Part shown: one piece after another, positions 37,561 to 61,497 of the stretch
Numbering within the stretch: position 1 is the stretch's first letter
Layout of the letters: every line of letters starts with the position of its first letter
Assembly: GCA_963659875.1 (NCBI GenBank)
Contig: CAVKVA010000008.1
Span: forward strand, 37,793-101,792
DNA length: 64,000 bases
Source of the DNA: Parolsenella sp.
GTDB lineage: Bacteria; Bacillota; Clostridia; Lachnospirales; Lachnospiraceae
Reading direction: 5' to 3'
Made by a program: the position numbers and the translations under genes
Notes under the pieces: model-generated
Database searches by the model: none
Told to the model about the DNA's origin: nothing
Seen by the model: only the letters and a program-made list of their open reading frames with translations

Positions 37561-37692
37561 AAAATTCGTAATATTTATCCTCCATAGGGGGCTGTCGCAG
37601 CTGCGGCGGCCCCCTTTTCTCTTGCTTGACATTATGCCGGAAAAACCGGATGATATTAAAGATATTTACGTGATGACAAAGAGGTGGGAACA

Positions 37693-44200: not shown

Positions 44201-44926
44201 CCCCACGAGGCGGCTACGACGCTCTTCCCGAAGCACACGGTATCGGAGATCAAGGCCCGGGCGGCAGAGCAGGAGGGAGCGGATGCGCCGGGAATTGTCC
44301 TGCTGCCGGATCACAGTGGCAGCAGCGAGGCCTATGTCTTTCCGGAGCAGGAAATCCCGGATGGGGCAATTTTAGATGGGAAAATGTCTTCGGTGCCGGA
44401 AGAAGATGCGCCGTCCGGCGCGCGGAACGCGGTCGTTGGCAGAGAAAAAACCGGCAGTGCCCGCGGTACGGCCTATCACAAGGTTCTCGCGCAATATGAT
44501 TTTGCGAAGGGCGAGGAACAACTGGAAGCCCTGCCGGAGGAAGTGCAGGCACTGGTGAATCTCCAGGATATCCGTCACTTCCTGCAGTCGCCGCTCGGAC
44601 AGCGCCTGCGGCAGGCCGCAGCGGAGAAACGCCTCTTCCGGGAGCAGCGCTTCATGAAGCAGGTAAGTTACAACTACCTTTTCCGGGACTCTGACGTTAC
44701 GGAACCGGTGCTGCTTCAGGGCGTGGCGGATGCCTTCATCCTCGAGGAGGAAGGCATTTTGCTGCTGGACTACAAGACAGACCGGGTGCGGACCGCAGAA
44801 ACCCTGCGCCGACGCTACAGTCTGCAGCTGCAGCTCTATGCCGATGCCCTGTCCGACATCACCGGCCGCCCGGTCAAGGAGAAGCTGCTGTATTCCTTTG
44901 CATTGCAGCAAACGGTTTCGTGCTGA
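41246..44926 (+). CDS. addA: helicase-exonuclease AddAB, subunit AddA
   Basis: UvrD/Rep helicase motifs VAAAAGSGKT, VDEYQDSN and QNFRS are present. The C-terminal nuclease region is GVADAFILEEEGILLLDYKTD. Confidence 0.9.
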   Translation: MGVQWTEEQQEVIRHREGNLLVAAAAGSGKTAVLVEHILERLTDPADPVSLSELVVMTFTDAAAQEMRERLRKGLLERLRQEPGNERLIREAGSIQNADISTIDAFCKRLITENYAVIGLDPAFRLGEEGELKLLKGDVIRDLLEARYEMQDEAFLRFADSYTRGKDDSGLEELILRVFDYASANPWPEEYLADAENGNASAEEYLLEDIRLRLRDFCAAYRYALEICQEEDGPESYLPTLEEELRHMSALAKAENLPTLAEGLQAITFGRLKSSKSEKKGLVTNVRNGVKKELQALQKLLVLPPAALQEKIQQGMAENVHVLVELTRDFMVRFREEKTRRRMLDFSDLEHFALQILYTGEGEERRPSAIADDYAKRLREILVDEYQDSNYVQEALVEALSAERFGRPDVFQVGDVKQSIYSFRLARPELFLSKYKDPQYPTITLSQNFRSCPEVLDAANAVFFRVMQEEVGGILYTEESSLHPGRILSEEEKALSCPAELHLVSVQDSEMEEAMDKTEAETRVIASRIKKLRTEGIPYRDMVILLRSPGSIGDEMVTVLGNEGIPAYCVSREGYFTAVEVEIVLSVLSIINNPRQSIPLAAVLRSPIYGFTDEELAELAAKQGGLERRFPGEEELWQQPEDNVGDPEAAVVADADGASKEVTDVQAEGAAGREAGADSEMEALSPALAEKLEKFYEQLAHFRELSQYLSIHELLYRIYDETGYYNYVSAQPAGERRRANLDQLIDSALAFENTSYRGLFDFIRYIEKLKKYSSDQGEASVLSEQNDLVRIMSIHKSKGLQFPVVFLAGLGRRINKMDLSGNVLIDPVLGIGTDYIDPEKRVRYPSMQKLGIREKLARDQLGEELRVLYVAMTRAENRLILSGTCTDPEKAIESVGESARPLSGSNIRSASCLLDWVIMALGERLWQSHSPLRLYTESPTGLREEKTEELKEIAALAEDFQNALFQRKTDTALQQEMQRRFTYRYPHEAATTLFPKHTVSEIKARAAEQEGADAPGIVLLPDHSGSSEAYVFPEQEIPDGAILDGKMSSVPEEDAPSGARNAVVGREKTGSARGTAYHKVLAQYDFAKGEEQLEALPEEVQALVNLQDIRHFLQSPLGQRLRQAAAEKRLFREQRFMKQVSYNYLFRDSDVTEPVLLQGVADAFILEEEGILLLDYKTDRVRTAETLRRRYSLQLQLYADALSDITGRPVKEKLLYSFALQQTVSC

Positions 44927-45132: not shown

Positions 45133-46080
45133 ATGCTTACAAGTATTGAGATATGCGCTGGAGCAGGCGGGCAGGCACTGGGGTTGGAAAAGGCCGGTTT
45201 TTCACATATTGCTTTGGTAGAGTATGAGAAACCATATTGTGACGCTTTGAAAAAAAATCGTCCAGACTGGAATGTATTGTGCATGGATGTACATGATTTT
45301 TCTGGAATTCCATATAAAGGGAAGATAGATTTATTTGCAGGCGGAGTTCCGTGTCCGCCATTTTCAGTTGCTGGAAAACAACTTGGAAATGAAGATGAAC
45401 GTGATTTATTTCCGGAGGCTATCAGGCTCATTGGGGAAATTCAGCCAAGGGCTATTATGCTAGAAAATGTTCGAGGATTTTTGGATTCCGTATTTAGAGA
45501 ATATCGAGAATCAATTATTGAGAAAATCAGAGCATTAGGGTATGAGGTTAATATAAAGCTACTAAATGCAAATGATTATGGTGTTCCACAGCTTAGGCCA
45601 AGGGTTGTTATTGTTGGAATAAGAAAGGATATTAAGGAGAAATTCAGTTATCCTGTTGAACACCCGGAGACTACGAAAAGTGTCGGAGAAACCCTATATG
45701 ATTTGATGCGATCCAACGGATGGAATGGCGCAGAAGATTGGGCGAAAAATGCAAATACGATAGCTCCGACAATTGTTGGAGGTTCAAAAAAACATGGTGG
45801 CCCAGATCTCGGGCCTGCAAGAGCCAGAAAGGCATGGGCTGCTTTAGGAGTAGATGGTGCAGGGGTTGCAAACGAAGCTCCAACAAATGAGTTTGAGGGT
45901 ATGCCAAAATTAACTCCTCGCATGATTGCAAGAATACAAGGATTTCCGGATGAGTGGAACTTTGGAGAAAAGAAAACGGCTGCATGCAGGATGATTGGTA
46001 ATGCTTTTCCGCCACCAGTGGCTTGCGCAGTGGGGAGAGAAATCAGGAGGGTTTTAGAAAATGAAAGCGTTAATTGCTGA
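45133..46080 (+). CDS. DNA (cytosine-5)-methyltransferase, M.NgoMIV-like (probable GCCGGC specificity)
   Basis: Motif I is EICAGAGGQALG, motif IV is GGVPCPPFS, motif VI is LENVRG, and motif X is IGNAFPPPV. Overall it closely resembles my memory of M.NgoMIV. Confidence 0.9.
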   Translation: MLTSIEICAGAGGQALGLEKAGFSHIALVEYEKPYCDALKKNRPDWNVLCMDVHDFSGIPYKGKIDLFAGGVPCPPFSVAGKQLGNEDERDLFPEAIRLIGEIQPRAIMLENVRGFLDSVFREYRESIIEKIRALGYEVNIKLLNANDYGVPQLRPRVVIVGIRKDIKEKFSYPVEHPETTKSVGETLYDLMRSNGWNGAEDWAKNANTIAPTIVGGSKKHGGPDLGPARARKAWAALGVDGAGVANEAPTNEFEGMPKLTPRMIARIQGFPDEWNFGEKKTAACRMIGNAFPPPVACAVGREIRRVLENESVNC

Positions 46081-46104: not shown

Positions 46105-46917
46105 TTGTTGGATAGTGGCGTTCTCACAATCGATAAAAATGGTGTTCCAAGCAATGCTGACACATCGTCAAAACTTTCCAAGGCAATAGCTAAAGGAATC
46201 GCAGATCGTCTGATGGCAGAGACACATGAAAAGGTTGTAGGACAAACATCTGGAGCAAAATTTGAGCAAATTAATATGGAGTTTTTATCGGCTACATTTC
46301 CGAAACTACAGAATATACGGCCGGGGAAATGGCATATTGTTAAGCTTGGAAACAGAAATGCAATTAAGACAAGCAGTTTTGTGCAATATGAACACCTGGA
46401 ATACTTATCCAGATTGTTACAGTACGACACAAAATTGGCAGCAAGTATGGGCAATGACTATATGGTTGCGCCTGACGTAGTCATATACAGAGAGCCTGTT
46501 TGTGATGATGAATTAAATACACCGATAAAAGTTGTAGATGACACTGTTTCGCTCAAAACAGATATACGAAAAAAGAATGGTGAACTTCCGATTCTTCATG
46601 CTTCCATATCAGCAAAATGGACGATGAGAAGTGACCGGGCACAAAATAGTCGAACAGAGGCCCTTAATTTGATAAGAAATAGAAAAGGACATCTTCCTCA
46701 TATCGTTGTTGTTACTGGAGAGCCATTACCAAGCCGTCTTGCTTCGCTTGCTTTAGGAACAGGCGATATAGATTGTATGTATCACTTTGCCCTATATGAG
46801 CTATTGGACTCTGTTATTGAAACGGGAGCGGAAGATTCAATTGAAATGCTCAAATCATTAATAGACGGGAAACGTTTGAAAGATATAAGTGATTTACCGT
46901 TAGATCTTTCGGTCTAA
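46105..46917 (+). CDS. NgoMIV-family type II restriction endonuclease (N-terminus apparently frameshifted)
   Basis: LHASISAKWTMRSDRAQNSRTEALNLIRNRKGHLPHIVVVTGEP and the C-terminal GKRLKDISDLPLDLSV recall NgoMIV. The long ORF has only a TTG start at 46105. A likely original ATG at 46061 is in another frame. Confidence 0.8.
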   Translation: MLDSGVLTIDKNGVPSNADTSSKLSKAIAKGIADRLMAETHEKVVGQTSGAKFEQINMEFLSATFPKLQNIRPGKWHIVKLGNRNAIKTSSFVQYEHLEYLSRLLQYDTKLAASMGNDYMVAPDVVIYREPVCDDELNTPIKVVDDTVSLKTDIRKKNGELPILHASISAKWTMRSDRAQNSRTEALNLIRNRKGHLPHIVVVTGEPLPSRLASLALGTGDIDCMYHFALYELLDSVIETGAEDSIEMLKSLIDGKRLKDISDLPLDLSV

Positions 46918-47893: not shown

Positions 47894-47968
47894 GGACATA
47901 AGACCATGTATTTTTAAAAGGACATGCGACCATACATTTTCTTGTTGACGGGACATGCGACTATGTCC
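47894..47968. promoter_or_regulatory. three GGACAT-N6-(C)ATGT operator-like repeats overlapping a promoter
   Basis: The repeats are GGACATAAGACCATGTA (47894), GGACATGCGACCATACAT (47920) and GGACATGCGACTATGTCC (47951). The third lies between TTGACG (47944) and TATAAT (47969). Confidence 0.45.
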
Positions 47969-48019
47969 TATAATGAAGCTCCAAAGGAAAATAGTACACA
48001 GATAGAAAGGAGCAAATCT

Positions 48020-48337
48020 ATGACAAGAAAACGTAAAGAATACAGGGAACTAAAGGTAAGCAGCTTCAGCGGATACGGCTATAAGACAGCGCCTATGCTG
48101 CGGATTCAGGGACTGTGGCTGGAGGAGCTTGGCTTCAATGTGGGAGAGCCGATTCTGGTTAAGTGCGAGGATGGTAAGCTGGTCATTACTGTGGATCGTG
48201 ACAGAGCCATTGCCAAGGAGAAGGAACAGGCTTATCTGGATGCGGAGATGAAGAAGCTGCAGAAGAAGTTTGAGGCTGAGAAGAAAAAGATTTACCAACA
48301 GGTCGTTGCTGAGAGAAAAGAGGTGTATGGCGCATGA
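48020..48337 (+). CDS. SymE-family (AbrB-fold) toxin-like protein
   Basis: 105 aa. APMLRIQGLWLEELGFNVGEPILVKCEDGKLVITV matches the SymE/SpoVT-AbrB pattern, followed by a K/E-rich tail. The RBS is GAAAGGAG. The track start 47924 is too far upstream. Confidence 0.65.
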   Translation: MTRKRKEYRELKVSSFSGYGYKTAPMLRIQGLWLEELGFNVGEPILVKCEDGKLVITVDRDRAIAKEKEQAYLDAEMKKLQKKFEAEKKKIYQQVVAERKEVYGA

Positions 48338-49122
48338 TGGGAAAGATAATAATGATCGGTTCCATGAAGGGCGGCGTGTCAAAGACCGTGACGACATTCA
48401 ACTTGGCATATTCTCTGGCTAAGCTCGAAAGGAAGGTATTGGCTGTTGATTTCGACAGTCAGGCAAACTTAAGCACCTGCTTTGGAGTGGAGAACACAGC
48501 GACTCTTCCGGTAAGCATCGGAAGCCTGATGTTAAATCAAATCGAGGATGAAGAGATGCCGGAGACTTCAAAATTTATTATGAGCCGTAACGGTGTGGAT
48601 TTTATTCCATCATCCATATTGCTCTCTGCAGTGGATTCCAAACTGAGGCTGGAGATGGGAGCAGAAAAGATGCTCTCACAGATCCTGGAGCCGCTTCACA
48701 CTTCCTATGATTATATTCTGATAGACACATCACCTTCTCTTGGAGCATTAACTATCAATGCACTGGCTGCAGCCGATGAGGTAATCATTACTGTGAATCC
48801 TCAGCTTCTGGCAATGATGGGACTTCAGGATTTCTTAAAGACAGTAAAGAAGATTAAGAGCAGAGTAAATGAAAGGCTTGAGGTGGCAGGCATATTGCTC
48901 ACTATGTGCGATGCCAGAACCAATCTCTGCAGGACTATTACAGAGCAGGTAAATGAAACCTTCCAGGGACAGATCCGAATCTACGAGAGCATGATTCCAA
49001 ATACTGTAAAGGTTGGTGAATCCGTCTATTATTCGGAACCTCTTCTGGAATATGCACCGGAATGTAAGGCCAGTGAGGCTTATCTGAAATTTGCGGAGGA
49101 GGTAGTTGCCGATGAAAAGTAA
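48334..49122 (+). CDS. parA: ParA/Soj family partition ATPase
   Basis: A deviant Walker A (GSMKGGVSKTVTTFNLA), DFDSQANL and ILIDTSPSLG are present. The start forms an ATGA overlap with the symE-like stop. Confidence 0.9.
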   Translation: MMGKIIMIGSMKGGVSKTVTTFNLAYSLAKLERKVLAVDFDSQANLSTCFGVENTATLPVSIGSLMLNQIEDEEMPETSKFIMSRNGVDFIPSSILLSAVDSKLRLEMGAEKMLSQILEPLHTSYDYILIDTSPSLGALTINALAAADEVIITVNPQLLAMMGLQDFLKTVKKIKSRVNERLEVAGILLTMCDARTNLCRTITEQVNETFQGQIRIYESMIPNTVKVGESVYYSEPLLEYAPECKASEAYLKFAEEVVADEK

Positions 49123-50089
49123 TGCTCCAAAAAGACAGATTTTCGATGCAGTTGACCTGCTGACAGAAACGCCACCAGCACCGGCAAATAACTCTAAGAA
49201 AAAGAATGGAGTGGTGATGCTGAAGCTGGATGATATCAAGCCTTTCCATGATCATCCTTTTCATTTGTATGAGGGCGACCGGCTGGATGATATGGTGGAG
49301 AACATCAAGGATCATGGAGTGCTAAATCCGGTTATCGTCAGGACCACAGCGGATGGCTATGAAATGCTTTCCGGTCATAACAGACAGAATGCTGCAAGGC
49401 TAGCTGGCCTTGCAGAAATTCCGGCAATTGTGAAGGAGAACCTTCCGGATACAGATGCCTATGTATATGTCATCGAGACCAATCTGATGCAGAGGTCCTT
49501 TACGGATCTGGAGATATCTGAGAAGGCGGCAGTGCTGAAGGAACGGTATGACAAGGTCCTTTATCAGAGACAGAGGGAAAACATTATGGCTGAGGTGGCC
49601 AAGCTGGAAGGTAAGCCTTTAAAAGGTGGTCACGGTGACCAACATTTCAATAACCGCGATGAAGTCGGAAAAGAGTATGGGCTATCCGGCAGTTCCGTGG
49701 GAAGACTTTTAAAGGTAAACGACTTGATTGTGCCACTTCGTCACAAGCTGGATAATGGATCCCTGATATTTAAGGTGGGAATACAGCTCGCTTTTCTGAC
49801 AGAGGAAGAGCAACAGCTGGTGTATGAGCAGATGATGGAACTGCATGTGAAGCTGACTATGACGATGGCCATCAAGCTGAGAGAGCATTCCGGAGATCTG
49901 AATCTGGCAATGGTAAGAAGATACCTGACTAAGACGGTGGAACCGAAAGATAAGCCGATGAATGTTAAGGTGCCTGAGACCTTATCCAAGAAATATTTCA
50001 AAGGGAAGGACCAGAAGACTATTGAAGATATAATGGAGAAGGCACTGGCTGCCTGGTTTGCAGCAGAGAGTGTAGGTGCCGATGTTTGA
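49112..50089 (+). CDS. parB: ParB/Spo0J-like partition protein
   Basis: The ParB N-terminal domain is GVLNPVIVRTTADGYEMLSGHNRQNAARLAGLAEIPAIV. ATG 49112 follows GGAGGAGG and overlaps the parA end. Confidence 0.85.
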   Translation: MKSNAPKRQIFDAVDLLTETPPAPANNSKKKNGVVMLKLDDIKPFHDHPFHLYEGDRLDDMVENIKDHGVLNPVIVRTTADGYEMLSGHNRQNAARLAGLAEIPAIVKENLPDTDAYVYVIETNLMQRSFTDLEISEKAAVLKERYDKVLYQRQRENIMAEVAKLEGKPLKGGHGDQHFNNRDEVGKEYGLSGSSVGRLLKVNDLIVPLRHKLDNGSLIFKVGIQLAFLTEEEQQLVYEQMMELHVKLTMTMAIKLREHSGDLNLAMVRRYLTKTVEPKDKPMNVKVPETLSKKYFKGKDQKTIEDIMEKALAAWFAAESVGADV

Positions 50090-50357
50090 TGAAAAGAGTC
50101 TTAAGAAAATAGATCCGGTCTATTTCAATATCATATTGGCGGACGATATGGATGTGACAATTCAGAGCAGAAATACCGGGCGTTACTGGTATCTGCACTG
50201 CGCCGGCTATCCGACGGAAGAAGCGCTGGTAATCTTTCATAAGCATCATTTTAAGGATGGATATCATCAGCATGGAAGAGCCAGGACACTGAGGCAGGCG
50301 ATAAAAAGTATTCAGGGACACGATGATTATCAATTGAATGTAAGGAAATGCATATAG
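50082..50357 (+). CDS. hypothetical protein (91 aa), last gene of the par operon
   Basis: ATG 50082 overlaps the parB stop. I recognise no family. Confidence 0.45.
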   Translation: MFDEKSLKKIDPVYFNIILADDMDVTIQSRNTGRYWYLHCAGYPTEEALVIFHKHHFKDGYHQHGRARTLRQAIKSIQGHDDYQLNVRKCI

Positions 50358-50425: not shown

Positions 50426-51028
50426 TTATTCTCCGTAGTAGAGCTTCTTAGCAAGCTCCTGAGCTGCTTTAATATCGGCGTAGCCCTGAGATTTGCCAAG
50501 ATGTAATTCTTCAAGAATCTGGCCTTTGGTGTAATCTTCGCAGATGAGATCCAGAATGCGGCCGTACTTCGGATTGATTATATGGATCTGCTTTAACAGA
50601 TCATCAATGATCATGCGGAGCATAACGGTATCTTCCAGATTTTCCGGTGATGCAGGCTCGAAACCTTTGCCATCTTCTGATTCGGCTTCTTCCAGAAACT
50701 GATCCAGGGAAAGAGTATCGTCTGTCTGGAAGGATGCAAAGTATTCACGTACATCACGATAGAAGCTTTTGATGGCAGCAGCTTTGTTCTCAGTTGCCAC
50801 CGGTGCAAAGGCTATCAGAACCTTATTCGGTCCGATATGCCAGGTCTCAAGGTTGTCACGGCACATGTTGAAGTGCTTGACCATTTCCCAGTCTACACGG
50901 ATCGGGACGAGGCACTCGCCCTGGTGTAGCGGAAGATTGTTGTAGCTGCGACGGTTGCCGTAGTTGTGATTGTCATTGGTTGACTGATGATTTTCAGTAC
51001 TTGTTTGTACATTTACATTGATTTCCAT
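50426..51028 (-). CDS. hypothetical protein with C-terminal sigma-70 region-4-like HTH
   Basis: 200 aa. The C-terminal ILDLICEDYTKGQILEELHLGKSQGYADIKAAQELAKKL resembles a region-4/LuxR-like HTH. The N-terminal domain is unknown. Confidence 0.4.
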   Translation of the reverse strand: MEINVNVQTSTENHQSTNDNHNYGNRRSYNNLPLHQGECLVPIRVDWEMVKHFNMCRDNLETWHIGPNKVLIAFAPVATENKAAAIKSFYRDVREYFASFQTDDTLSLDQFLEEAESEDGKGFEPASPENLEDTVMLRMIIDDLLKQIHIINPKYGRILDLICEDYTKGQILEELHLGKSQGYADIKAAQELAKKLYYGE

Positions 51029-51260: not shown

Positions 51261-51452
51261 TTAATTGTCGTTTGCCATCAGATATAAATCACTGAAAGCA
51301 GATTCGTAGTCGCTTGGACTGAGTTCTTCAGCAGAGTTAACACCGAATCTTTGAAAGACGGACTTCGCTACATCAGAACCATATTCAGCACTTACTTTGT
51401 CAGCGGCATCCTGAATGCTGTCTAACATATCTCTGTTGCTGTACCAGCTCAT
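51261..51452 (-). CDS. hypothetical small acidic protein (63 aa)
   Basis: ATG 51452 is preceded by GGAGG, on the same strand and upstream of the 50426-51028 gene. Confidence 0.4.
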   Translation of the reverse strand: MSWYSNRDMLDSIQDAADKVSAEYGSDVAKSVFQRFGVNSAEELSPSDYESAFSDLYLMANDN

Positions 51453-51673
51453 TTTCTGTACCTCCATATTCCGTCCGCTCATTCTGCCGGGCCCTGGCGT
51501 TGGCAGACATATTTCAAAAGAAATTTTAAAGTCGATTTGAGTTGATTTATAACCAATGACCACCGAGAAAGTTGATTCATAAGACCACTTATGCTAAGAT
51601 GGAAATTGGGTTTTTATATCAACTGATAACCGCTTCCTACATTTTTCTTTTGATGATTTAAGGATACCAATCG

Positions 51674-51739
51674 AAAAAGGGACTTACATTATGGGAGACT
51701 ATCGATAAAAAGGGACTTTTGGGACCAAAAAAGGGACTT
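51674..51739 (+). repeat. three direct copies of AAAAAGGGACTT immediately upstream of the first gene of the defence array
   Basis: Copies lie at 51674-51685, 51707-51718 and 51728-51739. The last abuts start codon ATG 51741. Confidence 0.6.
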
Positions 51740-51740
51740 G

Positions 51741-52580
51741 ATGAAAAAGATAACGATTAAAGAATATTCCGATGCTGTGAAGAAGAGTTTTGGCATCACG
51801 ATTAGCCAAGGTCAATTCATGCGTGAAATGTTTACAGCGGCTGGATCTGATAAATTCTCCTCTCGATCCGACGAGGATTATGCAAAAAAAATCTGCAATG
51901 GTTCCAAACCCATTACAGATGAAATGAAAAACAGCTTCCCAAAGCCATACCGTGTTAAAGCTGTGGCTACATATCTGACAGGGAAAAATGCTGAATCAAA
52001 GATATATAATCTTGCACTATTTTTTGAAGTACAGCATGCGGATGTAAAAAAGGAGCATCTCTTAAAAGCTATAGCTGCTCAGTTCTTCTTATACGTTGAA
52101 GGTGGAGGGCAGGATAAGGCTGAGGAGAATCAAGTTCCGGTAACCTATCAGAGACTTTTAGACGGTACCATTGATGAAAATGTACTGGGTTTTCCTCTAT
52201 ATTCCGGAGATCGGGCATGGGTAATAAATGGCCAAAGAGTAAGAGCCTATACAAAAGGATTTTACGAAAAGTTTAAACATGTCTGGGATATTCGAAATAA
52301 TGGAAAAGTAGTCTGGAGCGGCCGCAAACTAATATGCAGAAGCGAAAGTACACAATATATAAAGTTAGATAAGCTGGAACTGGACATCCCCGAGACTGAA
52401 CCTGGGGGTCGTTTTGAAATTACAGTAGATGTGGATTCCAGAGGTAAGGAAGGCACATTTGAAAGTATCTGGGAAATGATTGACAGCAACGGTAATAATT
52501 GTTTTCCAGATGATAAGAAACAGTTTGCATTTACAGTAACTGTTATTAACAAATCACGGAGAGCGATGGAGGCTGAGTGA
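51741..52580 (+). CDS. protein with unknown N-terminal domain and C-terminal NBR1-FW / Ig-like domain
   Basis: The C-terminal FKHVWDIRNNGKVVWSGRKLIC...ELDIPETEPGGRFEITVDVDSRGKEGTFESIWEMIDSNGNNCFPDDKKQFAFTVTV follows the W.v.N.G...W / p.v.PGe..e.sv...aP...G.y.s.W.m pattern of the NBR1-like Ig domain. Confidence 0.5.
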   Translation: MKKITIKEYSDAVKKSFGITISQGQFMREMFTAAGSDKFSSRSDEDYAKKICNGSKPITDEMKNSFPKPYRVKAVATYLTGKNAESKIYNLALFFEVQHADVKKEHLLKAIAAQFFLYVEGGGQDKAEENQVPVTYQRLLDGTIDENVLGFPLYSGDRAWVINGQRVRAYTKGFYEKFKHVWDIRNNGKVVWSGRKLICRSESTQYIKLDKLELDIPETEPGGRFEITVDVDSRGKEGTFESIWEMIDSNGNNCFPDDKKQFAFTVTVINKSRRAMEAE

Positions 52581-52798
52581 TGAGTGACAATACAATCGAG
52601 AAATGGTCAACATTAAAAGAAGTACAGGAGCATTTAGGAGTAGGACGCGAGACAATTCTTCAGTGGATCGCAAAGAAGAATATGCCTGCGTATAAGATGG
52701 GACGGCTCTGGAAATTTAAAATATCTGAAGTTGATGCATGGGTTAAGTCTGGGGAGGCTGCAGATAATTCAGCACCGCAGGATCAGGAAAATCAATAA
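52580..52798 (+). CDS. excisionase-family / MerR-like helix-turn-helix DNA-binding protein
   Basis: 72 aa. WSTLKEVQEHLGVGRETILQWIAKKNMPAYKMGRLWKFKISEVDAWV is the classic excisionase-type HTH. The start overlaps the stop of the preceding gene (TGATG). Confidence 0.7.
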   Translation: MSDNTIEKWSTLKEVQEHLGVGRETILQWIAKKNMPAYKMGRLWKFKISEVDAWVKSGEAADNSAPQDQENQ

Positions 52799-52815: not shown

Positions 52816-53739
52816 ATGGGGGATCAAATTCTCAGCAAAACATTAAATGAAAAATTTGATACCGTTTTCGAAGAGGTGGAACATTCAGAGTCCTTAGGAC
52901 TGATGAATAAGAACGACCTCAAATTATTCTGCCTGGATATAGAAAATAATGAGTTCAGCTTTGATCCATTGATAGAATTCCTGACAGATAATCTGGGCCA
53001 GTATGTTTTTTCCAGGGCTGAGATTGATGATCTTAAGATGGATGGTAAAGAACAGACAGTTGCGCTAAAAGCGGTCAGAAGATTGTATAAAGCAGGAAGA
53101 CCTGACGAGAAAGGAACCGGAAACGAGCTCGGGGAGGTACTTGACTATTGCTTCTTTGAGCATGTACTTGGTGCTCCCAAAATCCTCAGTAAATATGAGC
53201 AAATATCTGTCGGAGGAATCTATAAAGCAAAGAGCTCAGGTGTCCATCTGCTGACAGTGGGTGATGAGACAGCACCGGCATATCAGCTGGTGTATGGAGC
53301 ATCCGGAATAATTGACGATATACAGGATGCAATAGATAAAGCTTTTGAGGAGATTGCTGCAGTTTCAGGCGGTCAGAGGCAGGAACGCCAGGTAGTAGAT
53401 AGTACCATTATGGGCAAAAGCTTTGATAATCAGACAACAGAAAGGCTTAAGGAAGTTCTTCTGCCAAGCAAGAAGAAAATACCGGTAGATAACGCTTATG
53501 GCATGTTTATAGGTTACACCCTTGGCTTAGATGTAGATCAATATACAAATGAAGAATTCAGGGCTGAGGCTCAGAGCAAGATGCGTTTGGATCTTCAGCA
53601 TCATGTTCAGTATATCGTGGATAAGGTCAATGAGTTGAAACTGAGTAGGTGCTCTTTCTATATCTATGTACTTCCGCTTAACAGTGCACTTTCAGATAAA
53701 AAAGAAGTTATGGATAGACTGCTGGGAGGTGACGACTGA
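52816..53739 (+). CDS. hamA: Hachiman HamA (DUF1837-like)
   Basis: 307 aa, immediately upstream of and overlapping a large SF2 helicase gene. The GNELGEVLDYCFFEHVLGAPKILSK helix is typical of DUF1837. Confidence 0.7.
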   Translation: MGDQILSKTLNEKFDTVFEEVEHSESLGLMNKNDLKLFCLDIENNEFSFDPLIEFLTDNLGQYVFSRAEIDDLKMDGKEQTVALKAVRRLYKAGRPDEKGTGNELGEVLDYCFFEHVLGAPKILSKYEQISVGGIYKAKSSGVHLLTVGDETAPAYQLVYGASGIIDDIQDAIDKAFEEIAAVSGGQRQERQVVDSTIMGKSFDNQTTERLKEVLLPSKKKIPVDNAYGMFIGYTLGLDVDQYTNEEFRAEAQSKMRLDLQHHVQYIVDKVNELKLSRCSFYIYVLPLNSALSDKKEVMDRLLGGDD

Positions 53740-56348
53740 TGCCGGATAACGCTGAAAACCAGGTTCGGCTTGCAGATGCCATTTACCAGAATATTTTGGA
53801 AAATGAGTATCTTCAGGAACTCTATGCGGCAATACTACATAACTACACGATTAAATTATTTGGGGACGATCAGAAATATTGTGTCGAATTCGACAAGATA
53901 GACGCATTGCGGTTTGCAGATATTTTATCCAAGTCCTCTTATAATGAGAAATCTGATGTACATAAATCACTTGCGCAGGAAATGGTTACGCTTTTGGATT
54001 ATTTATATCCGAATGATGAGGATGTCGCTTTTTATGCCGGTTCCGTTTTGACCAACACCTGCAATTTCCGAGGCAGGGATTTGATGGCTCCAGAGTACAA
54101 GAGCAGTTCACTTTTTGAACAGCTGTATTCTGAAGTTATGAAGGAATATCTGGAAGTTCCAGGAGATGAAGAAAAGCACTTTTTCAGATCGCAGAAGGAA
54201 GTATACGATCATTTTGAGGATGGAAGTTTCAGCTACTCAGGACCTACTTCTATGGGTAAATCCTTTGTTATGCAGACCTTCATAAAAAATCAGATAGAAC
54301 TGGATAAGGGCTATAATTTCGCACTGCTGGTTCCGACCAAGGCATTGATTAATGAGGTGACGAGTGAACTGACAAAGACGCTTCGGAATTATTTTGCAGA
54401 GAAGGATTACAGAATCGTTACTTCAGCAGGCGCAGTGGTCCTGAAAGATGTACATCACTTCATTTTTATCATGACGCCGGAAAGAATGGCTTACCTTCTG
54501 ACTTTATATAGAGACATGCCGATAGACTATATCTTTATAGATGAGGCACATAAAATTTCAGAAGAAGACTCCAGAAGTGCTTTTTACTATTCGGTTGTGG
54601 AGAAATTATGCAACAGACAGAACAAACCGAGGATTATTTTTGCATCTCCCAATATCCCGAATCCGGAAATCTATCAGCAGTTAATTCCGGAAGGAACAGA
54701 TTTGGTAAAAAATCAGATGGCTTCTGAATACACACCTGTGAGTCAGGTTAAGTTCCTGGTGGATTTTAATCATGGTGAAATTAAATACTATGATTCGATA
54801 AAGCGATGTCTGACATATGCCAGTCAATTAACAGGAGATGAAAACCTTTACAGGCTTCTTATAAAACTCGGAGGAAGTTCGAAGAATCTGGTGTATTGTC
54901 ATTCTAAAACGAGAGTCATTGAGTATGCTCAGACTTTTGCGGCTATGCTTCCGGAACTCCATGACCCAGACTTGGATGCATTGTCGGATGAGATAAAGGA
55001 TGAGGTATATAATGATTATTTCCTTGCAGAGACGGTAAAAAAAGGCGTGGCCTACCATATGGGGTACCTTCCCGCTGCACTGCGCCTTAGGATAGAGGAA
55101 CTGTTTCGTCAGGAAAATAAGATACATACCATTGTGTGTACAAGCACTTTGCTTGAAGGAGTAAATCTTCCTGCGGATAACTTATTTGTGACACATTATC
55201 TAAACGGAAAGAAAGAACTGAATGAGGTGGCGTTCAGAAATCTTCTGGGTCGCGTTGGACGCATACAGTACAACCTTTACGGAAATGTATACCTTATGGC
55301 ACTTGAAAAAGGAACTGATACACAGAAGTATGCTGAAATGCTTCAAAAGGAAGTTCCTAAGCAGGAATTGTCAATAAGAAAGACGCTTACAAAGCATCAG
55401 GAGAAAAAGATAATAGAGCACTTGAAGCAGGGCAACACCGAACTTGATAAAACGAGTGCACAGACATTGGATGAGTTTGCTCTGATGAGGAAATTCATGG
55501 TAATGCTTCTGAGAAGCATATTAAACGATATCGATAGCCCGGTAAGGAAAGAATTTAAGGATTTACTGACGGACGAAGTTGTTAATCAGATTAAAAATGC
55601 CTTCTCGGGGAAAGAAAGTGAACTTGATGATCTGAATATCACTCCGGATCAGTCTGAGAAACTTTATTTTGCTATAAAAAATGGTTTGAAGTATCCCAAA
55701 ATCAATATTTACGGCTATGTGGATAATAAGGAGCTAATGGCATTCCTCGAAAAACTGAATGAAATATTTAACTGGAATAAATATGATCGCTCCCTTGTAG
55801 GAGGGGAATCAAATGGTGAGCATCCGGTGCTGAAAAGAAATGCGGTCGCTCTGTCAAAATGGTTTAAGGGAATGAGCATTCAGCAGATGATCAAGGATTC
55901 CATTGAATATAAAAAGGCCAGTGGACAAAAGGTCTATTTCCCGGATCATTCAAAAGAGTCGTATAACGGATCCGCCAGACACAATAATCAGATAGCGGCG
56001 GATGTGCTTAACGACATTAATGATGTAATTCTGTTTAGTTTTTCCAATTACTTTATGGCATTTTCATCCGCGTATAAAGCCTTTATAGGAGAAGAGAGCT
56101 TTTCGAATGATTGGTATGAATATGTGGAATATGGTTCTGTCAATCCATTAACCATCATGTTGCAACGTAATGGCTTTTCGAGAGAAGCAGCAACGTTCAT
56201 TACTGAAAATGAGAGGATCTATGTTGAAGCAACAGATGATGGCGCTCGGCTCAAATTGACTTTGCTTAATTGTGGAAAGACTACGGTTGAGCGTGAGGCC
56301 CAAATCATTCACATCAATATGCCGGAATTATTTATAGAACACAATTGA
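53739..56348 (+). CDS. hamB: Hachiman HamB (SF2 DEAD/DEAH-box helicase)
   Basis: 869 aa with Walker A GPTSMGKSF, DEAH box FIDEAHKI, and helicase-C motifs CTSTLLEGVNLPA and LLGRVGR. The start forms an ATG/TGA overlap with hamA. Confidence 0.8.
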   Translation: MPDNAENQVRLADAIYQNILENEYLQELYAAILHNYTIKLFGDDQKYCVEFDKIDALRFADILSKSSYNEKSDVHKSLAQEMVTLLDYLYPNDEDVAFYAGSVLTNTCNFRGRDLMAPEYKSSSLFEQLYSEVMKEYLEVPGDEEKHFFRSQKEVYDHFEDGSFSYSGPTSMGKSFVMQTFIKNQIELDKGYNFALLVPTKALINEVTSELTKTLRNYFAEKDYRIVTSAGAVVLKDVHHFIFIMTPERMAYLLTLYRDMPIDYIFIDEAHKISEEDSRSAFYYSVVEKLCNRQNKPRIIFASPNIPNPEIYQQLIPEGTDLVKNQMASEYTPVSQVKFLVDFNHGEIKYYDSIKRCLTYASQLTGDENLYRLLIKLGGSSKNLVYCHSKTRVIEYAQTFAAMLPELHDPDLDALSDEIKDEVYNDYFLAETVKKGVAYHMGYLPAALRLRIEELFRQENKIHTIVCTSTLLEGVNLPADNLFVTHYLNGKKELNEVAFRNLLGRVGRIQYNLYGNVYLMALEKGTDTQKYAEMLQKEVPKQELSIRKTLTKHQEKKIIEHLKQGNTELDKTSAQTLDEFALMRKFMVMLLRSILNDIDSPVRKEFKDLLTDEVVNQIKNAFSGKESELDDLNITPDQSEKLYFAIKNGLKYPKINIYGYVDNKELMAFLEKLNEIFNWNKYDRSLVGGESNGEHPVLKRNAVALSKWFKGMSIQQMIKDSIEYKKASGQKVYFPDHSKESYNGSARHNNQIAADVLNDINDVILFSFSNYFMAFSSAYKAFIGEESFSNDWYEYVEYGSVNPLTIMLQRNGFSREAATFITENERIYVEATDDGARLKLTLLNCGKTTVEREAQIIHINMPELFIEHN

Positions 56349-56418
56349 GTCCGTATTTTGGGACAATTAAAATGATAGCCTGATAGTGGCTAATAATATA
56401 TGAAAGGTGGAAGCGCTT

Positions 56419-57609
56419 ATGGCCAAACCAGGTGAAAAATTTTACATAGATGCCCGTGGCGTTAAAGCAGAAGGCGTGGTTACAGAGAACGGATTCCTTG
56501 TGTTTAAAGGCAGCCAGGTCCGTGATAAGATAGCAAACTATTTAAATCAAACATTAAAAGACTTGAGGAAGATTTCTGCAGAGGATGGAACTATTGTAGA
56601 TAATCTTCTTACAAGGGATATGGAATTTAAGAGTCCGTCAACCGCAGCATATTTCCTGTTTGGAGCCAATGCCAGCGGTCCGCAGACATGGAAAGATGAA
56701 AACGGAATGACTATGTTGGAGCATGACAAGCTTGAGGCTGGAATTCTTAAAGATCCTACTGACCGTGAATATCTTGGTTTCCTGAAAACTGTTGAAGGTA
56801 ATGAGGGAAGCAAATGCTATTATCCGACTCGTTTGGATACTTATGGCTGTGGTTGTGGACATGATTGCAGTTACTGTTATGCAAAGGATATGATTCAGCG
56901 ACTGTCAGGACCTGACGGCTGGGATCCGAAGCATCCTAAAATCGCTGATACATGGCGAATTGAAAATCGTATAAAGCGCGGGGACTTAAAAGCAGGAGAC
57001 GTAGTAAGGCTTGGTGGGCTTACGGATTGTTTCCAACCAGTAGAGCTTAAATACCATACTACACTTGAGACAATCAAGATCCTTAATAATTATGACATTG
57101 GGTATCTGATTGTTACCAAGTCTCATTTGGTGGCAAATCCGGAGTATTTGGAAGTTATGAGAAAGGATCTGGCGCATATTCAGATTACAACGACAAGTTT
57201 TGATTCGAAAATCTGTAAGAAATATGAGAAGGCCAGTCCACCGTCAAAACGTGTTGAAGCGATAGAAAAGCTTCAGAGCGAAGGCTTTGATACATTCTTT
57301 AGACTTAGCCCTTATGTAGATGGGTGGATTGACTTTGATAAGCTGAACCAAGTCGCCTGTGACAAAATTCTGGTGGAGTTTCTTAGAGTGAATACTACCA
57401 TCCTTCGGCAATTTGATATAGATGCATCAGCTTATACCTATAATGACAATGGATATATGAACCTGCCGCTGGAGCGTAAACTTGAAATATTATCGAAAAT
57501 TACCGGGTTCAAAGAGGTGACGGTATGTGATGATTGCACGGAGCATTATAACTACTTCCGTGATCATTTTAATCCGAATCCTCATGATTGCTGCAACTTG
57601 AGAAAATAG
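56419..57609 (+). CDS. DUF4357-like N-terminal domain fused to a radical SAM domain (SplB/COG1533-like)
   Basis: The N-terminus KFYIDARGVKAEGVVTENGFLVFKGS...EFKSPSTAAYFLFGANASGPQTWK is the DUF4357 pattern. The radical SAM cluster motif is CGHDCSYC (CX3CX2C), and GGLTDCFQP lies downstream. ATG 56419 follows the RBS GAAAGGTGG. Confidence 0.75.
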   Translation: MAKPGEKFYIDARGVKAEGVVTENGFLVFKGSQVRDKIANYLNQTLKDLRKISAEDGTIVDNLLTRDMEFKSPSTAAYFLFGANASGPQTWKDENGMTMLEHDKLEAGILKDPTDREYLGFLKTVEGNEGSKCYYPTRLDTYGCGCGHDCSYCYAKDMIQRLSGPDGWDPKHPKIADTWRIENRIKRGDLKAGDVVRLGGLTDCFQPVELKYHTTLETIKILNNYDIGYLIVTKSHLVANPEYLEVMRKDLAHIQITTTSFDSKICKKYEKASPPSKRVEAIEKLQSEGFDTFFRLSPYVDGWIDFDKLNQVACDKILVEFLRVNTTILRQFDIDASAYTYNDNGYMNLPLERKLEILSKITGFKEVTVCDDCTEHYNYFRDHFNPNPHDCCNLRK

Positions 57610-57627: not shown

Positions 57628-60249
57628 ATGGCTGTTAAGAAAAATGAATTATACAGTTCTTTATATGCAAGCTGCGATAAGCTTCGCGGTGGTATGGATA
57701 CCTCACAGTACAAGGACTATATCCTTACTTTGCTTTTTGTGAAGTATGTAACAGATAAATTCAAGGGCGTAAAGTACGCCGACATTGTAGTGCCAGAGGG
57801 TGGAAGTTTTGATGATCTTATTGCTCTCAGAGGAAATAAGAATATTGGTGAAGAAATAGATAAGGTGATTGCAAAACTCGCCGAAGAAAATGAACTGCGC
57901 GGTGTTATTGATAATGCCCATTTTAATGACGAGACAAAGCTGGGAAAAGGCCAGGAGATGGTGGACAAACTCACGGGACTTATCGGAATCTTCATGCGTC
58001 CAGAATTTGACTTTAAGCACAACAAAACTAGCGGCGACGATATCTTGGGTGATGCTTACGAGTATTTGATGCGTAAATTTGCTACCGAGAGTGGAAAGAG
58101 TAAAGGACAGTTCTATACTCCGGCAGAGGTATCTCGAATTCTGGCCAAGGTAGTTGGAATTGGAAAGATTAAACCTAGAGAGGAAGGATATTCCGTATAT
58201 GATCCGGCCTGTGGATCTGGTTCGTTGCTTATTCGTGCTGTTGATGAGGCTCCTTTTGAAATAGCTATATACGGTCAGGAGAAGGAGACCACCACGGCTG
58301 GTCTTGCAAAGATGAACCTTGTACTTCACAACAAGGCGGCTGGTGAAATTCATGCAGCGGATACATTTTCATCACCTCAGTATTTTGAAGAAGGCTCTGA
58401 TAATCAGGTGCTTAAGCGTTTTGATTTTGCTGTAGTTAATCCTCCATTTTCACTTAAAAACTGGACAGATGGTCTTAAAGATTATGGCAGATTTACAGGT
58501 TATGGAGATAATCCTCCAGAGAAAAATGCTGATTTCGCTTGGCTGCTTCATATTATCAAGTCTATTAAGAATACAGGAAAGGCTGCCATTGTAGAGCCTC
58601 ATGGCGTTCTTTTTCGAGGAAATGCTGAGGCTACAATCCGTCAGTCAATTGTAGACAGGGGATATATTAAGGCAATTATTGGCCTTCCAACAAACCTTTT
58701 CTATGGTACAGGTATACCTGGTTGCATTATTGTACTTGATAAAGAGGATGCAGATGAGAGAAGTGGCATCTTTATGATTGATGCTAGTCACGATTTTATT
58801 AAAGACGGAAACAAGAATAGACTCCGTGAAGAGGATATTTATCGTATTGTTACAACATTTGATAATCAGCTTGAAGTACCGGGATATTCCAGAATGGTAC
58901 CAATGGAAGAGATTAAGGTAAAGAATGGATATAACCTCAATATTCCAAGATATATCGATTCCGGAGCTAAGGAAGACATTCAGGATATTGAAGCACATCT
59001 GCATGGAGGAATTCCTGCCGCTGATGTGGATTCACTTGGAAAGTATTGGACTTTATTCCCAGGACTTAAGGACAGGTTATTCTCTGTTGAACGAGAGGGC
59101 TACTATAAGCTGAATATTGATATAGATGAGGTAAGAAACATCATATACAATGACGAGCAGTTTGCAGCATACGCAGACCGTATTGAAAATGCATTTGATG
59201 CATGGAAGCAGAAGGTAGATGAAGGCCTGAGAAGCATTAATTCAGAGACCAATATTAAGCAGTACATTGTAGAACTTTCAGAACAGTTGGTAAAAGAGTT
59301 TGAAGATGTAGAACTTATTGATAAGTATGACGTCTATGAAGTGCTGCTGTCATACTGGCAGGAGACCATGGCTGATGATGTTCTTATTGTTACTTACGAT
59401 GGATATGAAGCCGGCAGGGAAATCGTTGACATCAAAGAGATTAAAAAGAAAAAGGATGGTACGGAAGAGGAAAAAATCAAGGGATGGGAAGGGAAAATTA
59501 TCCCGCGCCCGCTAATGGAGCAGACTTTCTTCAAATCCGAGTGTGATGAGATAGCAAAGCTTCAAGCAGAGATGGATGAGGCTGATAGCAAGCTTTCTGA
59601 ACTTATTGAAAATACGGCAGATGACTCGGCTCTTTCAGATGTAATAGAGGATGGAAAAGTTAAAGCTACGGATGTGCAGACAAAGATTGACGAAATATTA
59701 AGCTACACAGAAAATGAAGAAGTTACAGCATTGCTTGCAATGGCTGATGCTTTTCCTATGAAGAAAAAAGAATACCAGGATTATATAAAAATCCATCCTA
59801 TATGTGAGAATGCCTATAATGGCGGAACTACTATAAGTAAGAAAACAATTACTGCAAGAATTGCCGAGATCCGTTCACAACTTCCTGTAAAAGAAATGTA
59901 CGAAGAGGACTTTGATGAATTAAAACAGGTGGCTGAAAATATTGCTATTTTATCAGATCTTAAATCAAAAATTAAGACTTTATCTACAGAACTCGAGGAG
60001 AAGGTTAAAGCTAAGTATTCAGAGCTTACAGATGAAGAAATCAAGATGTTGCTGATTGATCTTAAGTGGTATGCAGCTTTGAGGGATGGCATTGATAGTT
60101 TATATGTGGCGGCTTCACATAATATTTCTAACAGAGTGATTGAACTCGCTGAGAGATATAAGGATACATTGCCTGAACTTGAAATATCTGTGGCAGACTA
60201 TGAGTCAAAGGTGAAGGCTCATCTGGAAAGGATGGGGTTTGCATGGTAA
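57628..60249 (+). CDS. hsdM: type I restriction-modification system methyltransferase subunit (long form, 873 aa)
   Basis: An HsdM_N-like start (YKDYILTLLFVKYVTDKF), FYTPAEV, motif I DPACGSGS and motif IV NPPF are present. A roughly 420-aa C-terminal extension follows the usual end (NLNIPRYID). Confidence 0.9.
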   Translation: MAVKKNELYSSLYASCDKLRGGMDTSQYKDYILTLLFVKYVTDKFKGVKYADIVVPEGGSFDDLIALRGNKNIGEEIDKVIAKLAEENELRGVIDNAHFNDETKLGKGQEMVDKLTGLIGIFMRPEFDFKHNKTSGDDILGDAYEYLMRKFATESGKSKGQFYTPAEVSRILAKVVGIGKIKPREEGYSVYDPACGSGSLLIRAVDEAPFEIAIYGQEKETTTAGLAKMNLVLHNKAAGEIHAADTFSSPQYFEEGSDNQVLKRFDFAVVNPPFSLKNWTDGLKDYGRFTGYGDNPPEKNADFAWLLHIIKSIKNTGKAAIVEPHGVLFRGNAEATIRQSIVDRGYIKAIIGLPTNLFYGTGIPGCIIVLDKEDADERSGIFMIDASHDFIKDGNKNRLREEDIYRIVTTFDNQLEVPGYSRMVPMEEIKVKNGYNLNIPRYIDSGAKEDIQDIEAHLHGGIPAADVDSLGKYWTLFPGLKDRLFSVEREGYYKLNIDIDEVRNIIYNDEQFAAYADRIENAFDAWKQKVDEGLRSINSETNIKQYIVELSEQLVKEFEDVELIDKYDVYEVLLSYWQETMADDVLIVTYDGYEAGREIVDIKEIKKKKDGTEEEKIKGWEGKIIPRPLMEQTFFKSECDEIAKLQAEMDEADSKLSELIENTADDSALSDVIEDGKVKATDVQTKIDEILSYTENEEVTALLAMADAFPMKKKEYQDYIKIHPICENAYNGGTTISKKTITARIAEIRSQLPVKEMYEEDFDELKQVAENIAILSDLKSKIKTLSTELEEKVKAKYSELTDEEIKMLLIDLKWYAALRDGIDSLYVAASHNISNRVIELAERYKDTLPELEISVADYESKVKAHLERMGFAW

Positions 60250-61484: not shown

Positions 61485-61497
61485 GGAGGTGATCAGT

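Follow-up and report, generated by a model that had tools for sequence, protein, structure and literature searches.

A candidate control head for a composite Hachiman and restriction-modification operon on prophage-like elements

What do two coupled genes and a run of direct repeats do at the head of a Hachiman defence operon? The question is raised by a 64-kb stretch of Parolsenella sp. DNA (contig CAVKVA010000008.1), the whole of which is referred to below as the window and to whose positions all coordinates refer. Two open reading frames (ORF), ORF1 and ORF2, lie there on the same strand as the Hachiman genes hamA and hamB, and a reading made from the letters alone (the original prediction) had taken them for a possible sensor/regulator pair behind an operator or iteron array. 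Comparison with related loci leads us to suggest, tentatively, that a composite defence operon on a prophage-like element has its control head at 51.57-52.80 kb, and that ORF1 reads the array. The operon, as we delimit it, consists of a promoter, a ~140-nucleotide (nt) leader, ORF1, ORF2, hamA, hamB, a radical-SAM gene, and the hsdMSR genes of a type I restriction-modification (RM) system. The features of the head and of the Hachiman genes behind it are the following.

51572-51600, plus strand: candidate sigma-70-type promoter (TTGATT, 17 nt, TAAGAT, with TG at -15/-14)
51659-51670, plus strand: leader box TAAGGATACCAA, 8 nt upstream of the first word of the array
51674-51739, plus strand: word array, five direct G-rich words, candidate operator
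51741-52580, plus strand: ORF1, an all-alpha N-domain (residues ~1-145) followed by an NBR1/FW immunoglobulin (Ig)-like domain (~155-270)
52580-52798, plus strand: ORF2, an excisionase-type winged helix-turn-helix (HTH) protein of the HTH_17 family, MAD1-like, encoded by the best-conserved gene of the cassette
52816-53739, plus strand: hamA, Hachiman nuclease (DUF1837)
53739-56348, plus strand: hamB, Hachiman SF2 helicase

A gene pair and a word array ahead of Hachiman

Reading of the sequence bore out the predicted gene pair. ORF1 (279 amino acids, aa) and ORF2 (72 aa) overlap in a TGATG that holds the stop codon of the one and the start codon of the other, and ORF2 ends 17 nt before the ATG of hamA (52816). 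hamA and hamB overlap in turn by 1 nt, and a scan of the plus strand from ORF1 to hsdM found no intrinsic terminators. The adjacent DUF1837 and SF2 helicase genes are those of a type I Hachiman system, as assessed by PF08878 (E 3e-35) for HamA and by PADLOC, whose HamA1 (E 2e-105) and HamB1 (E 1e-304) models are matched at full length, end to end.

Approximately 230 related loci were collected from three separate seeds, ORF1, HamA, and the HTH protein, and they display a near-universal gene order, ORF1-HTH-(type I/III RM)-HamA-HamB-(RM/BREX), with RM genes between the HTH gene and hamA in most relatives. The ORF1 seed took in protein look-ups, 12 IMG/VR contigs, and 33 species genomes, which come from Clostridia, Actinomycetota, Spirochaetota, Sutterella, and Sumerlaeota. 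In these loci the HTH gene always comes next, except in one (L042) where no HTH was detected, and wherever there is enough downstream flank HamA-HamB is present, either adjacent or 5-8.5 kb further on behind a type I/III RM system. With the HamA seed, we examined the 80 best metagenome loci (HamA identity 39-79%). ORF1(-HTH) lies upstream in 52 of them, and most of the others end inside the RM block at a contig edge. The clear exceptions are loci encoding a HamA with a long N-terminal extension (L069 and L133/134), one locus with other genes upstream (L099), one with an HTH remnant (L076), and one with ORF1 and no HTH (L122). When the HTH protein was used as seed in IMG/VR, ORF1 was found directly upstream in ~70 of 80 loci. 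What follows hamB varies between type I RM, type III RM, and BREX.

No integrase, the neighbour by which a functional excisionase is recognised, follows or adjoins the pair in any of the ~230 annotated loci; the next gene is hamA or an RM methyltransferase, and only in some loci are there serine recombinases within a few kb. A backbone common to almost all loci surrounds the pair; it includes a divergent sigma-70 region 4 (sigma-r4)-like gene, a small gene, and a DUF2800-type nuclease, and many of the loci are on IMG/VR contigs. The ORF1-HTH-HamAB block stays together even where ORF1 identity falls to 25%, where RM systems have been inserted or exchanged, and where the backbone has recombined. 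Since the three seeds agree, the pair belongs to a composite Hachiman and RM operon and is not an integrase-linked excision cassette. This operon is carried by prophage-like elements and goes with one HamAB clade, and ORF1 and ORF2 are very probably dedicated parts of it. The survey called for by the original prediction thereby tied the pair to hamAB in essentially every locus with enough flank, and a distribution mainly beside integrases and without linkage to defence, which would have spoken against a defence role, was not what the ~230 loci show. The two alternatives offered at the outset, a sensor/regulator pair or a separate two-gene system, fare differently: a Hachiman-linked module stands, and a free-standing or integrase-linked cassette does not.

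The triple direct repeat seen ahead of ORF1 was also confirmed. The window has three exact copies of the 12-mer AAAAAGGGACTT (51674, 51707, and 51728; 33 and 21 nt apart), with one extra match at 42080 that carries one mismatch; 0.34 matches with up to one mismatch would be expected by chance, and none of 100 shuffles reached four. Two further degenerate copies were seen. The array reads as five words, GGGAC at 51679, 51712, 51721, and 51733 and a degenerate GGGAG at 51693, the last of which ends 3 nt ahead of the ORF1 ATG (51741). Similar arrays are widespread in homologous leaders: at least four copies of the commonest 5-mer within 100 nt were found in 22 of 37 representative leaders, compared with 25 of 1800 control windows taken from the same loci. 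The layout is conserved as well, consisting of 3-5 direct words with start-to-start distances of 23 or 33, then 9, then 12 nt, and ending just ahead of the ribosome-binding site. The word itself differs by lineage (GGGAC, GGTAC, GGTTC, GGGGC, TGGAC, AGGAC, GAGAC, CGGAC, GGTAG, or GGAA). The step from 23 to 33 nt corresponds to one helical turn and 9 + 12 nt to two turns, which argues for words that are read on one face of duplex DNA. The array is probably a DNA operator.

Other meanings of the words found no support. As an operator-like, conserved cis element, the array agrees with the original prediction of an operator or iterons, apart from a parS or iteron role, which is not supported by the distribution of ParAB, a neighbour in the window's own clade only. 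The words are not copies of the Shine-Dalgarno sequence, as relatives have a separate one after the array and the word varies under an anti-Shine-Dalgarno sequence that hardly changes across bacteria. Recognition by an RM system, or sensing of its methylation, was likewise ruled out by the finding that type I, type III, and BREX partners share the GGGACTT word.

Upstream of the array, the promoter candidate of the window scores 8/12 against the consensus, below what the consensus scan reports. Relatives have near-consensus promoters at the same position (e.g. TTGATT-17-TGnTATAAT), ~100-130 nt upstream of ORF1. Between promoter and words, TAAGGATACCAA is the best-conserved stretch of the leader across three clades (alignment A6). 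Other lineages have similar boxes of the form TAAT/TAAG..ATAnC, and a box-like hairpin persists in a lineage that has neither ORF1 nor the array. This box (51659-51670) is a candidate site for the invariant HTH protein.

ORF1, ORF2, and the candidate reader of the words

ORF1 has two domains in its AF2 model (pLDDT 84.5). Residues 176-257 match N_BRCA1_IG (PF16158; E 2e-8, 35.2 bits for a gathering cut-off of 28), and the same match is precomputed for nearly all full-length homologues. In Foldseek searches of the PDB with the FW beta-sandwich, the top structures were those of human NBR1 (4OLE) and ILRUN (6VHI), with E 3e-6 to 4e-6 and target TM 0.68-0.79. Among 22 homologues Trp182, Trp192, and Trp244 are invariant and Trp160 is at least 90% conserved. 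The Pfam score, the two structures, and the four tryptophans together bear out the NBR1 FW/Ig-like fold that had been suspected at the C terminus. The N-terminal ~150 aa, which had seemed unplaceable, proved to be so. Modelled alone, the first 150 residues are confidently predicted to form an eight-helix domain (pLDDT 91.7, pTM 0.88), yet Foldseek gave no significant match in the PDB (best E 2.3, TM <=0.25) or in BFVD (best E 1.3), and profile searches gave zero matches in Pfam, NCBIfam, PHROGs, or PDB sequences. The best, non-significant, BFVD match is an uncharacterised protein from a gut Siphoviridae contig (A0A8S5Q7J1), with 279 aa exactly as long as ORF1, which may be an ORF1 family member on a phage genome. 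PADLOC returned a weak match to the N-terminal part of LmuA (E 4e-4), and no toxin family in Pfam, NCBIfam, PADLOC, or PHROGs matches ORF1. The family is small, with 32 clusters when grouped at 90% identity and, among matches of E <1e-30, 83 representatives at 50% identity.

Which protein, if any, reads the words was approached through pairs of loci that have a near-identical protein but different words. The original prediction had proposed the HTH protein as the binder of the repeats, which these comparisons do not support. Its 54-aa core is identical in L031 (GGGAC), L032 (GGTAC), and L037 (GGTTC), and the HTH proteins of L048 (TAGGACA) and L052 (TCGGACAC) are 91% identical overall and differ in one core residue. 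Moreover, L157-L163 have kept the promoter, an HTH that is 79% identical, and a type III RM system, but have no ORF1, array, or HamAB. For ORF1 the picture is different. The most similar ORF1 proteins that go with different words are 75% identical (AGGAC versus GAGAC, two words that also co-occur inside single arrays), and all other such pairs are at most 55% identical. In three controlled pairs (L031/L032, L048/L052, and L030 or L033/L109) the N-domain is only 24-42% identical, compared with 64-76% for the FW domain, 91-96% for the HTH, and 87-92% for HamA. At the nucleotide level, identity between L031 and L032 climbs again inside the FW-coding part of ORF1 and peaks over the HTH gene.

Further candidates were rejected. 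The divergent sigma-r4-like proteins of L037 (GGTTC) and L115 (AGGAC) are 91% identical, with two substitutions in the region-4 HTH, and the breakpoint between these two loci falls between the small divergent gene and the leader. The product of that small gene is an unlikely reader as well, being ~75% identical (by eye) between the same two loci, acidic, and not homologous across lineages. HamA (90-92%) and HamB (90-93%) are nearly identical across different words, and the RM type varies under one word.

By sequence comparison, then, the word changes with the ORF1 N-domain and not with the HTH, the sigma-like protein, HamA, HamB, or the RM type. Naturally reduced loci point the same way. L141/L142 encode an N-domain-HamA fusion without FW domain and without HTH, and retain four phased GGG-words. 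Together with L157-L163, this suggests that the array is tied to the N-domain and Hachiman, and the HTH to RM. Co-variation of this kind suggests that the ORF1 N-domain may be the reader of the array, which we put forward with some reserve.

The N-domain is not confined to ORF1. In an established family (P0182, 451 aa) it is fused to HamA, with 30% identity to ORF1 residues 8-143 (E 1e-10), and three separate in-frame deletion derivatives also fuse it to HamA (P0023/L065, P0037/L058, and P0180/L139). In the latter (L058 3870-5696, L065 9437-10744, and L139 529-1953) the HTH has been lost, and the FW domain wholly or partly; these may be decaying loci or selected short-cuts toward a P0182-like architecture. 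Downstream of HamB in L141 (12048-15552) come first an HTH_26 gene and then two same-strand methyltransferase genes, with an MspI-type endonuclease encoded on the opposite strand, a block that looks like a classical type II RM system under C-protein control in place of the HTH_17-headed RM. The N-domain is also found at the head of proteins with P-loop NTPase and/or TPR regions (P0161, P0166, P0171, and P0173, the last without a relative in IMG/VR) and of proteins whose C termini match no family (P0152, P0163, P0164, and P0178 among them). Compared with the N-terminal extensions of 490-522-aa HamA proteins, it gave a probability of 61% in hhalign, which hints at homology, and no match in a hidden Markov model search; these extensions merit attention. 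The fusion to the N terminus of HamA suggests that ORF1 probably works physically alongside HamA, in which case it would be a split-off regulatory or sensor domain of the nuclease, beyond being a transcription factor.

That ORF2 is an excisionase-type HTH, as first proposed, was confirmed by HTH_17 (PF12728; E 4e-12, 46.5 bits, cut-off 27) and TIGR01764 (54.2 bits, cut-off 28.8), both above their curated cut-offs, and excisionase families including phrog_66 are matched too. It is far better conserved than ORF1, with 53-94% identity to relatives compared with 25-63%. Its similarity to solved winged-HTH proteins is marginal (RacA, E 0.15-0.24; RdfS, E 0.66). The closest named relative is the regulator MAD1 of MADS (NCBIfam NF047737, E 2e-17; PADLOC mad1, E 4e-9), and the NF047737 score of 63.2 bits, under the equivalog cut-off of 80, makes ORF2 a MAD1 relative rather than an equivalog. 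Both are small HTH_17 genes that head an operon with a type-I-like methyltransferase; the partner genes here differ in being HamAB and ORF1. Among the seven operon genes from ORF1 to hsdS (hsdR lay outside the scan), PADLOC found mad1-like ORF2 and mad2-/mad5-like hsdM/hsdS, and none of mad3, mad4, or mad6-8. Deletion of mad1 barely affects MADS defence (bioRxiv 10.1101/2023.03.30.534895), and such dispensability fits the role of a regulator.

Direct repeats spaced by one helical turn are the binding sites of small winged-HTH proteins such as Apl, Xis, and BldC (PMC5859096, PMC7498355). They belong, with RdfS, to small MerR/excisionase-like HTH proteins that form head-to-tail oligomers on direct repeats of about one turn (PMC5859096, PMC7498355, PMC11963761), and the array has a geometry suited to binding of this type. 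ORF2 departs from that class in that the comparisons between loci do not single it out as the protein that sets the word.

Proposed mechanism and rival explanations

Hachiman is mildly toxic and "must be regulated" (PMC12278908), and since it both senses and causes DNA damage it needs restraint. There is a precedent in PezAT, which lies upstream of hamAB and represses Hachiman (PMC13064477). In the mechanism that we propose here, ORF1 would bind the array as double-stranded DNA through its fast-evolving N-domain, just ahead of its own ribosome-binding site, and this binding would, by negative autoregulation, keep the toxic Hachiman/RM operon transcribed at a set level. The FW domain, a protein-binding fold, would serve as input or assembly domain and contact a trigger protein or HamA/HamB. 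The near-invariant HTH_17 protein would act as a general co-regulator. It may be architectural, a winged HTH like Xis or BldC polymerising along the phased, A/T-spaced repeats, or it may be an RM controller acting at the conserved leader box.

Several points weigh against ORF1 as reader and repressor. The array lies ~80-110 nt downstream of the consensus promoter, an unusual place for a repressor, barring a roadblock or DNA-wrapping mechanism. The N-domain has no detected similarity to known DNA-binding folds (HTH, ribbon-helix-helix, or other) and is neutral to acidic in most lineages. As the array is 10-50 nt from the sequence that encodes the N-domain, their co-inheritance could be plain physical linkage. 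Furthermore, the words are 1-2 changes from a G-GAC core, so that a loose, shape-based, BldC-like reader, conceivably the HTH, could tolerate them, and BldC is a precedent for a reader with loose specificity (PMC5859096). The loci without ORF1 (L157-L163) represent a single evolutionary event, and the surveys lack phylogenetic independence, given that a single family of mobile-element backbone is common to all the loci.

Three of the explanations that compete with this one concern how the words or ORF1 itself would act. One holds that HTH_17 alone is the operator-binding autorepressor, with ORF1 reduced to modulating it as a sensor or partner. Binding to direct repeats spaced by one turn is indeed known for HTH_17/excisionase-type proteins (Xis, Apl, BldC, RdfS), the A/T-rich spacers followed by G-rich words at 9-12 nt resemble the shape-read AATTxxxx(C) units of BldC, and a G-GAC-like core is common to all words. 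We nevertheless consider it unlikely, as the HTH cores are identical where words differ and each word is stable within its lineage, and as the HTH-bearing lineage without ORF1 has no array whereas the HTH-less lineage with the N-domain-HamA fusion has one. Control could instead be exerted in the mRNA leader, with a protein or the ribosome on the GGGAC words near the Shine-Dalgarno sequence setting translation of ORF1. This would agree with the position of the array, always within the predicted 5' untranslated region, with a last word that mostly starts 13-20 nt before the start codon (8 nt here), with the sense orientation of all word copies, and with a strong hairpin just upstream of the array in one clade (L031/L035/L066/L067; z -2.8 to -5.7). 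It is very unlikely all the same. The exact 10-nt step (23 versus 33) with fixed spacings of 9 and 12 suits phasing on duplex DNA better than RNA, and conserved RNA structure in the leader is generally not supported: the leader of the window folds no better than shuffled sequence (z +0.89), the RNAalifold consensus energy is -0.13 kcal/mol, and the mean z over 29 lineages is -0.5 (p 0.09). Rfam has zero matches in the leader, and ORF1 is not basic. Finally, ORF1 could mainly be a structural or sensor subunit of Hachiman, whose N-domain docks onto HamA or DNA and whose FW domain captures a phage or host protein, with transcription controlled elsewhere or as a secondary function. The N-domain-HamA fusions, in the established P0182 family and in three independent deletion derivatives, speak for such a role. 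So do the P-loop NTPase/TPR proteins, in which the N-domain has the position usual for effector or adaptor domains, the weak LmuA match, and the fact that FW domains bind protein cargo (PMC9233695). On the other side, the N-domain can be replaced (24-42% identity) where HamA remains 87-92% identical, which speaks against co-evolution with HamA, and the co-variation of word and N-domain is left without explanation. A subunit role is in our view somewhat unlikely as the main function of ORF1, and it is compatible with, rather than exclusive of, binding of the array by ORF1.

It is highly improbable that ORF1 and ORF2 are ordinary backbone genes of the mobile element, either an excisionase and its partner or a toxin-antitoxin pair, which are found beside a defence hotspot by descent. 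ORF2 does match excisionase families (TIGR01764, phrog_66), the surroundings are conserved and prophage-like (sigma-r4-like gene, DUF2800-type nuclease, and in some loci serine recombinases nearby), many loci come from IMG/VR, and coupled genes behind a repeat-bearing promoter resemble a toxin-antitoxin operon. However, an integrase is never the gene next after the pair, HamAB is kept through RM insertions and swaps, backbone recombination, and ORF1 divergence to 25% identity, and the N-domain is fused to HamA in some lineages. Where ORF1 is absent HamAB is absent too, and the nearest named family of the HTH, MAD1, is a defence regulator.

Neighbouring genes and comparison with known systems

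Beyond the control head and hamAB, the operon continues downstream, and two genes diverge from it upstream.

56407-57609, plus strand: DUF4357 and radical-SAM gene between hamB and hsdM, present also in the closest relative (L023)
57628-64000, plus strand: type I RM system, with hsdM at 57628-60249, hsdS at 60243-61484, and hsdR from ~61498, extending past the edge of the window
50426-51028, minus strand: 200-aa sigma-70 region-4-like protein, divergent, kept upstream of ORF1 in most lineages
51261-51452, minus strand: 63-aa acidic protein, divergent, with a conserved 5' leader at ~51453-51545

The protein encoded at 56407-57609 has an N-terminal DUF4357 and a radical-SAM core, with PDC-S14-like matches in PADLOC, and is only distant kin of the "radical SAM mobile pair B" family. 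Ahead of its gene lies a promoter-like site (56345-56373), and radical-SAM relatives are likewise found downstream of HamB in L115, L136, and L201. The 200-aa divergent protein is tied by jackhmmer to Sigma70_r4 proteins of L013, L058, and L141 and matches phrog_2513. Together with the small gene, it is part of the conserved neighbourhood. The 63-aa gene has a -10 element of the TGnTATAAA type on the minus strand at 51546-51555. Its leader (51453-51560, minus strand) shows strong nucleotide conservation in the window's clade, with GTCTGCCAACGCCAGGGCCCGGCAGAATGAGCGGACGGAATATGGAGGT on the minus strand, and could be a regulatory RNA or an operator.

Further upstream (47924-50357) are genes for a SymE-like toxin (47924-48337), ParA (48334-49122), ParB (49106-50089), and a 93-aa ORF, a set that recurs in the closest relatives (L015-L023) and is absent from distant ones. 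A type II RM pair comes right after an AddA-type helicase-nuclease gene (41246-44926), which has a 1168-aa ORF just upstream (37684-41190). The pair comprises genes for a C5 cytosine methyltransferase (45133-46080) and for an NgoMIV-family endonuclease (46105-46917), and its position indicates that the defence island begins right behind the repair genes. A megablast search of 46-53 kb against plasmids and phages found nothing. The sole Rfam match in the window is 5_ureB_sRNA (2578-2865, minus strand, 87.7 bits), antisense inside a 570-aa ORF (2427-4139) that, going by the name of the Rfam family, is presumably a urease subunit gene. This match probably reflects conservation of the coding sequence and not a real small RNA.

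Canonical Hachiman is described as a two-gene system (PMC12278908). The clade studied here adds two upstream genes, a cis array, and, almost always, a tightly spaced RM or BREX system on the same strand, and since ORF1 and ORF2 accompany its HamAB in almost all loci it departs from a system of two genes without further dedicated components. Full-text literature searches found no NBR1-like or HTH_17 accessory of Hachiman, nor this four-gene, RM-coupled form. The closest parallel is Pez-Ham of Streptococcus, where a two-gene module upstream of hamAB represses Hachiman and balances cost against defence (PMC13064477), the same logic as that proposed here. The proteins, an Xre-type antitoxin and a zeta kinase, are unrelated to the N-domain-FW protein and HTH_17; in contrast to Pez-Ham, our searches detected no toxin-like domain, and the leader carries a phased word array.

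In RM systems, controller (C) proteins or autoregulating methyltransferases have a comparable place: a small DNA-binding protein heading the operon, or an enzyme's own fused DNA-binding N-terminal domain, times and limits expression in a newly entered host. C proteins are Xre-type dimers on palindromic C-boxes, whereas here there are five direct phased words and a candidate reader whose fold has no known relatives. The resemblance of ORF1 to NBR1 and ILRUN, for its part, lies in the shared FW fold and its four-tryptophan signature. In eukaryotes these are autophagy receptors in which the FW domain binds cargo; here it is joined to a new bacterial N-domain within a defence operon. No account of bacterial FW-domain proteins in defence was found in full-text literature searches.

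Hachiman itself is known; what is new is the fold of the N-domain and the array that co-varies with it, and what is unexpected is an FW domain in a bacterial immune operon. There is a slim chance that the N-domain is a sequence-specific DNA-reading fold that can be plugged onto FW domains, HamA, or STAND-type NTPases, the FW domain being an immune sensor for a phage or host protein. If so, a domain of the autophagy receptor NBR1 would gain a prokaryotic immune role, ORF1 would represent a new modular class of defence component, and Hachiman with its RM partner would be released or targeted through coupling to the sensing of infection. Literature searches found no account of how Hachiman is controlled in its native setting beyond PezAT in Streptococcus. 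The four-part head described here (promoter, array, ORF1, and HTH) would be a solution widespread on mobile elements, governing Hachiman and RM/BREX jointly. Matched pairs of array and N-domain from natural variants offer a ready system for studies of specificity, and our findings suggest that defence-annotation tools should add a four-gene Hachiman subtype. Two defence systems under common control would also bear on how cost and timing are coordinated in defence islands.

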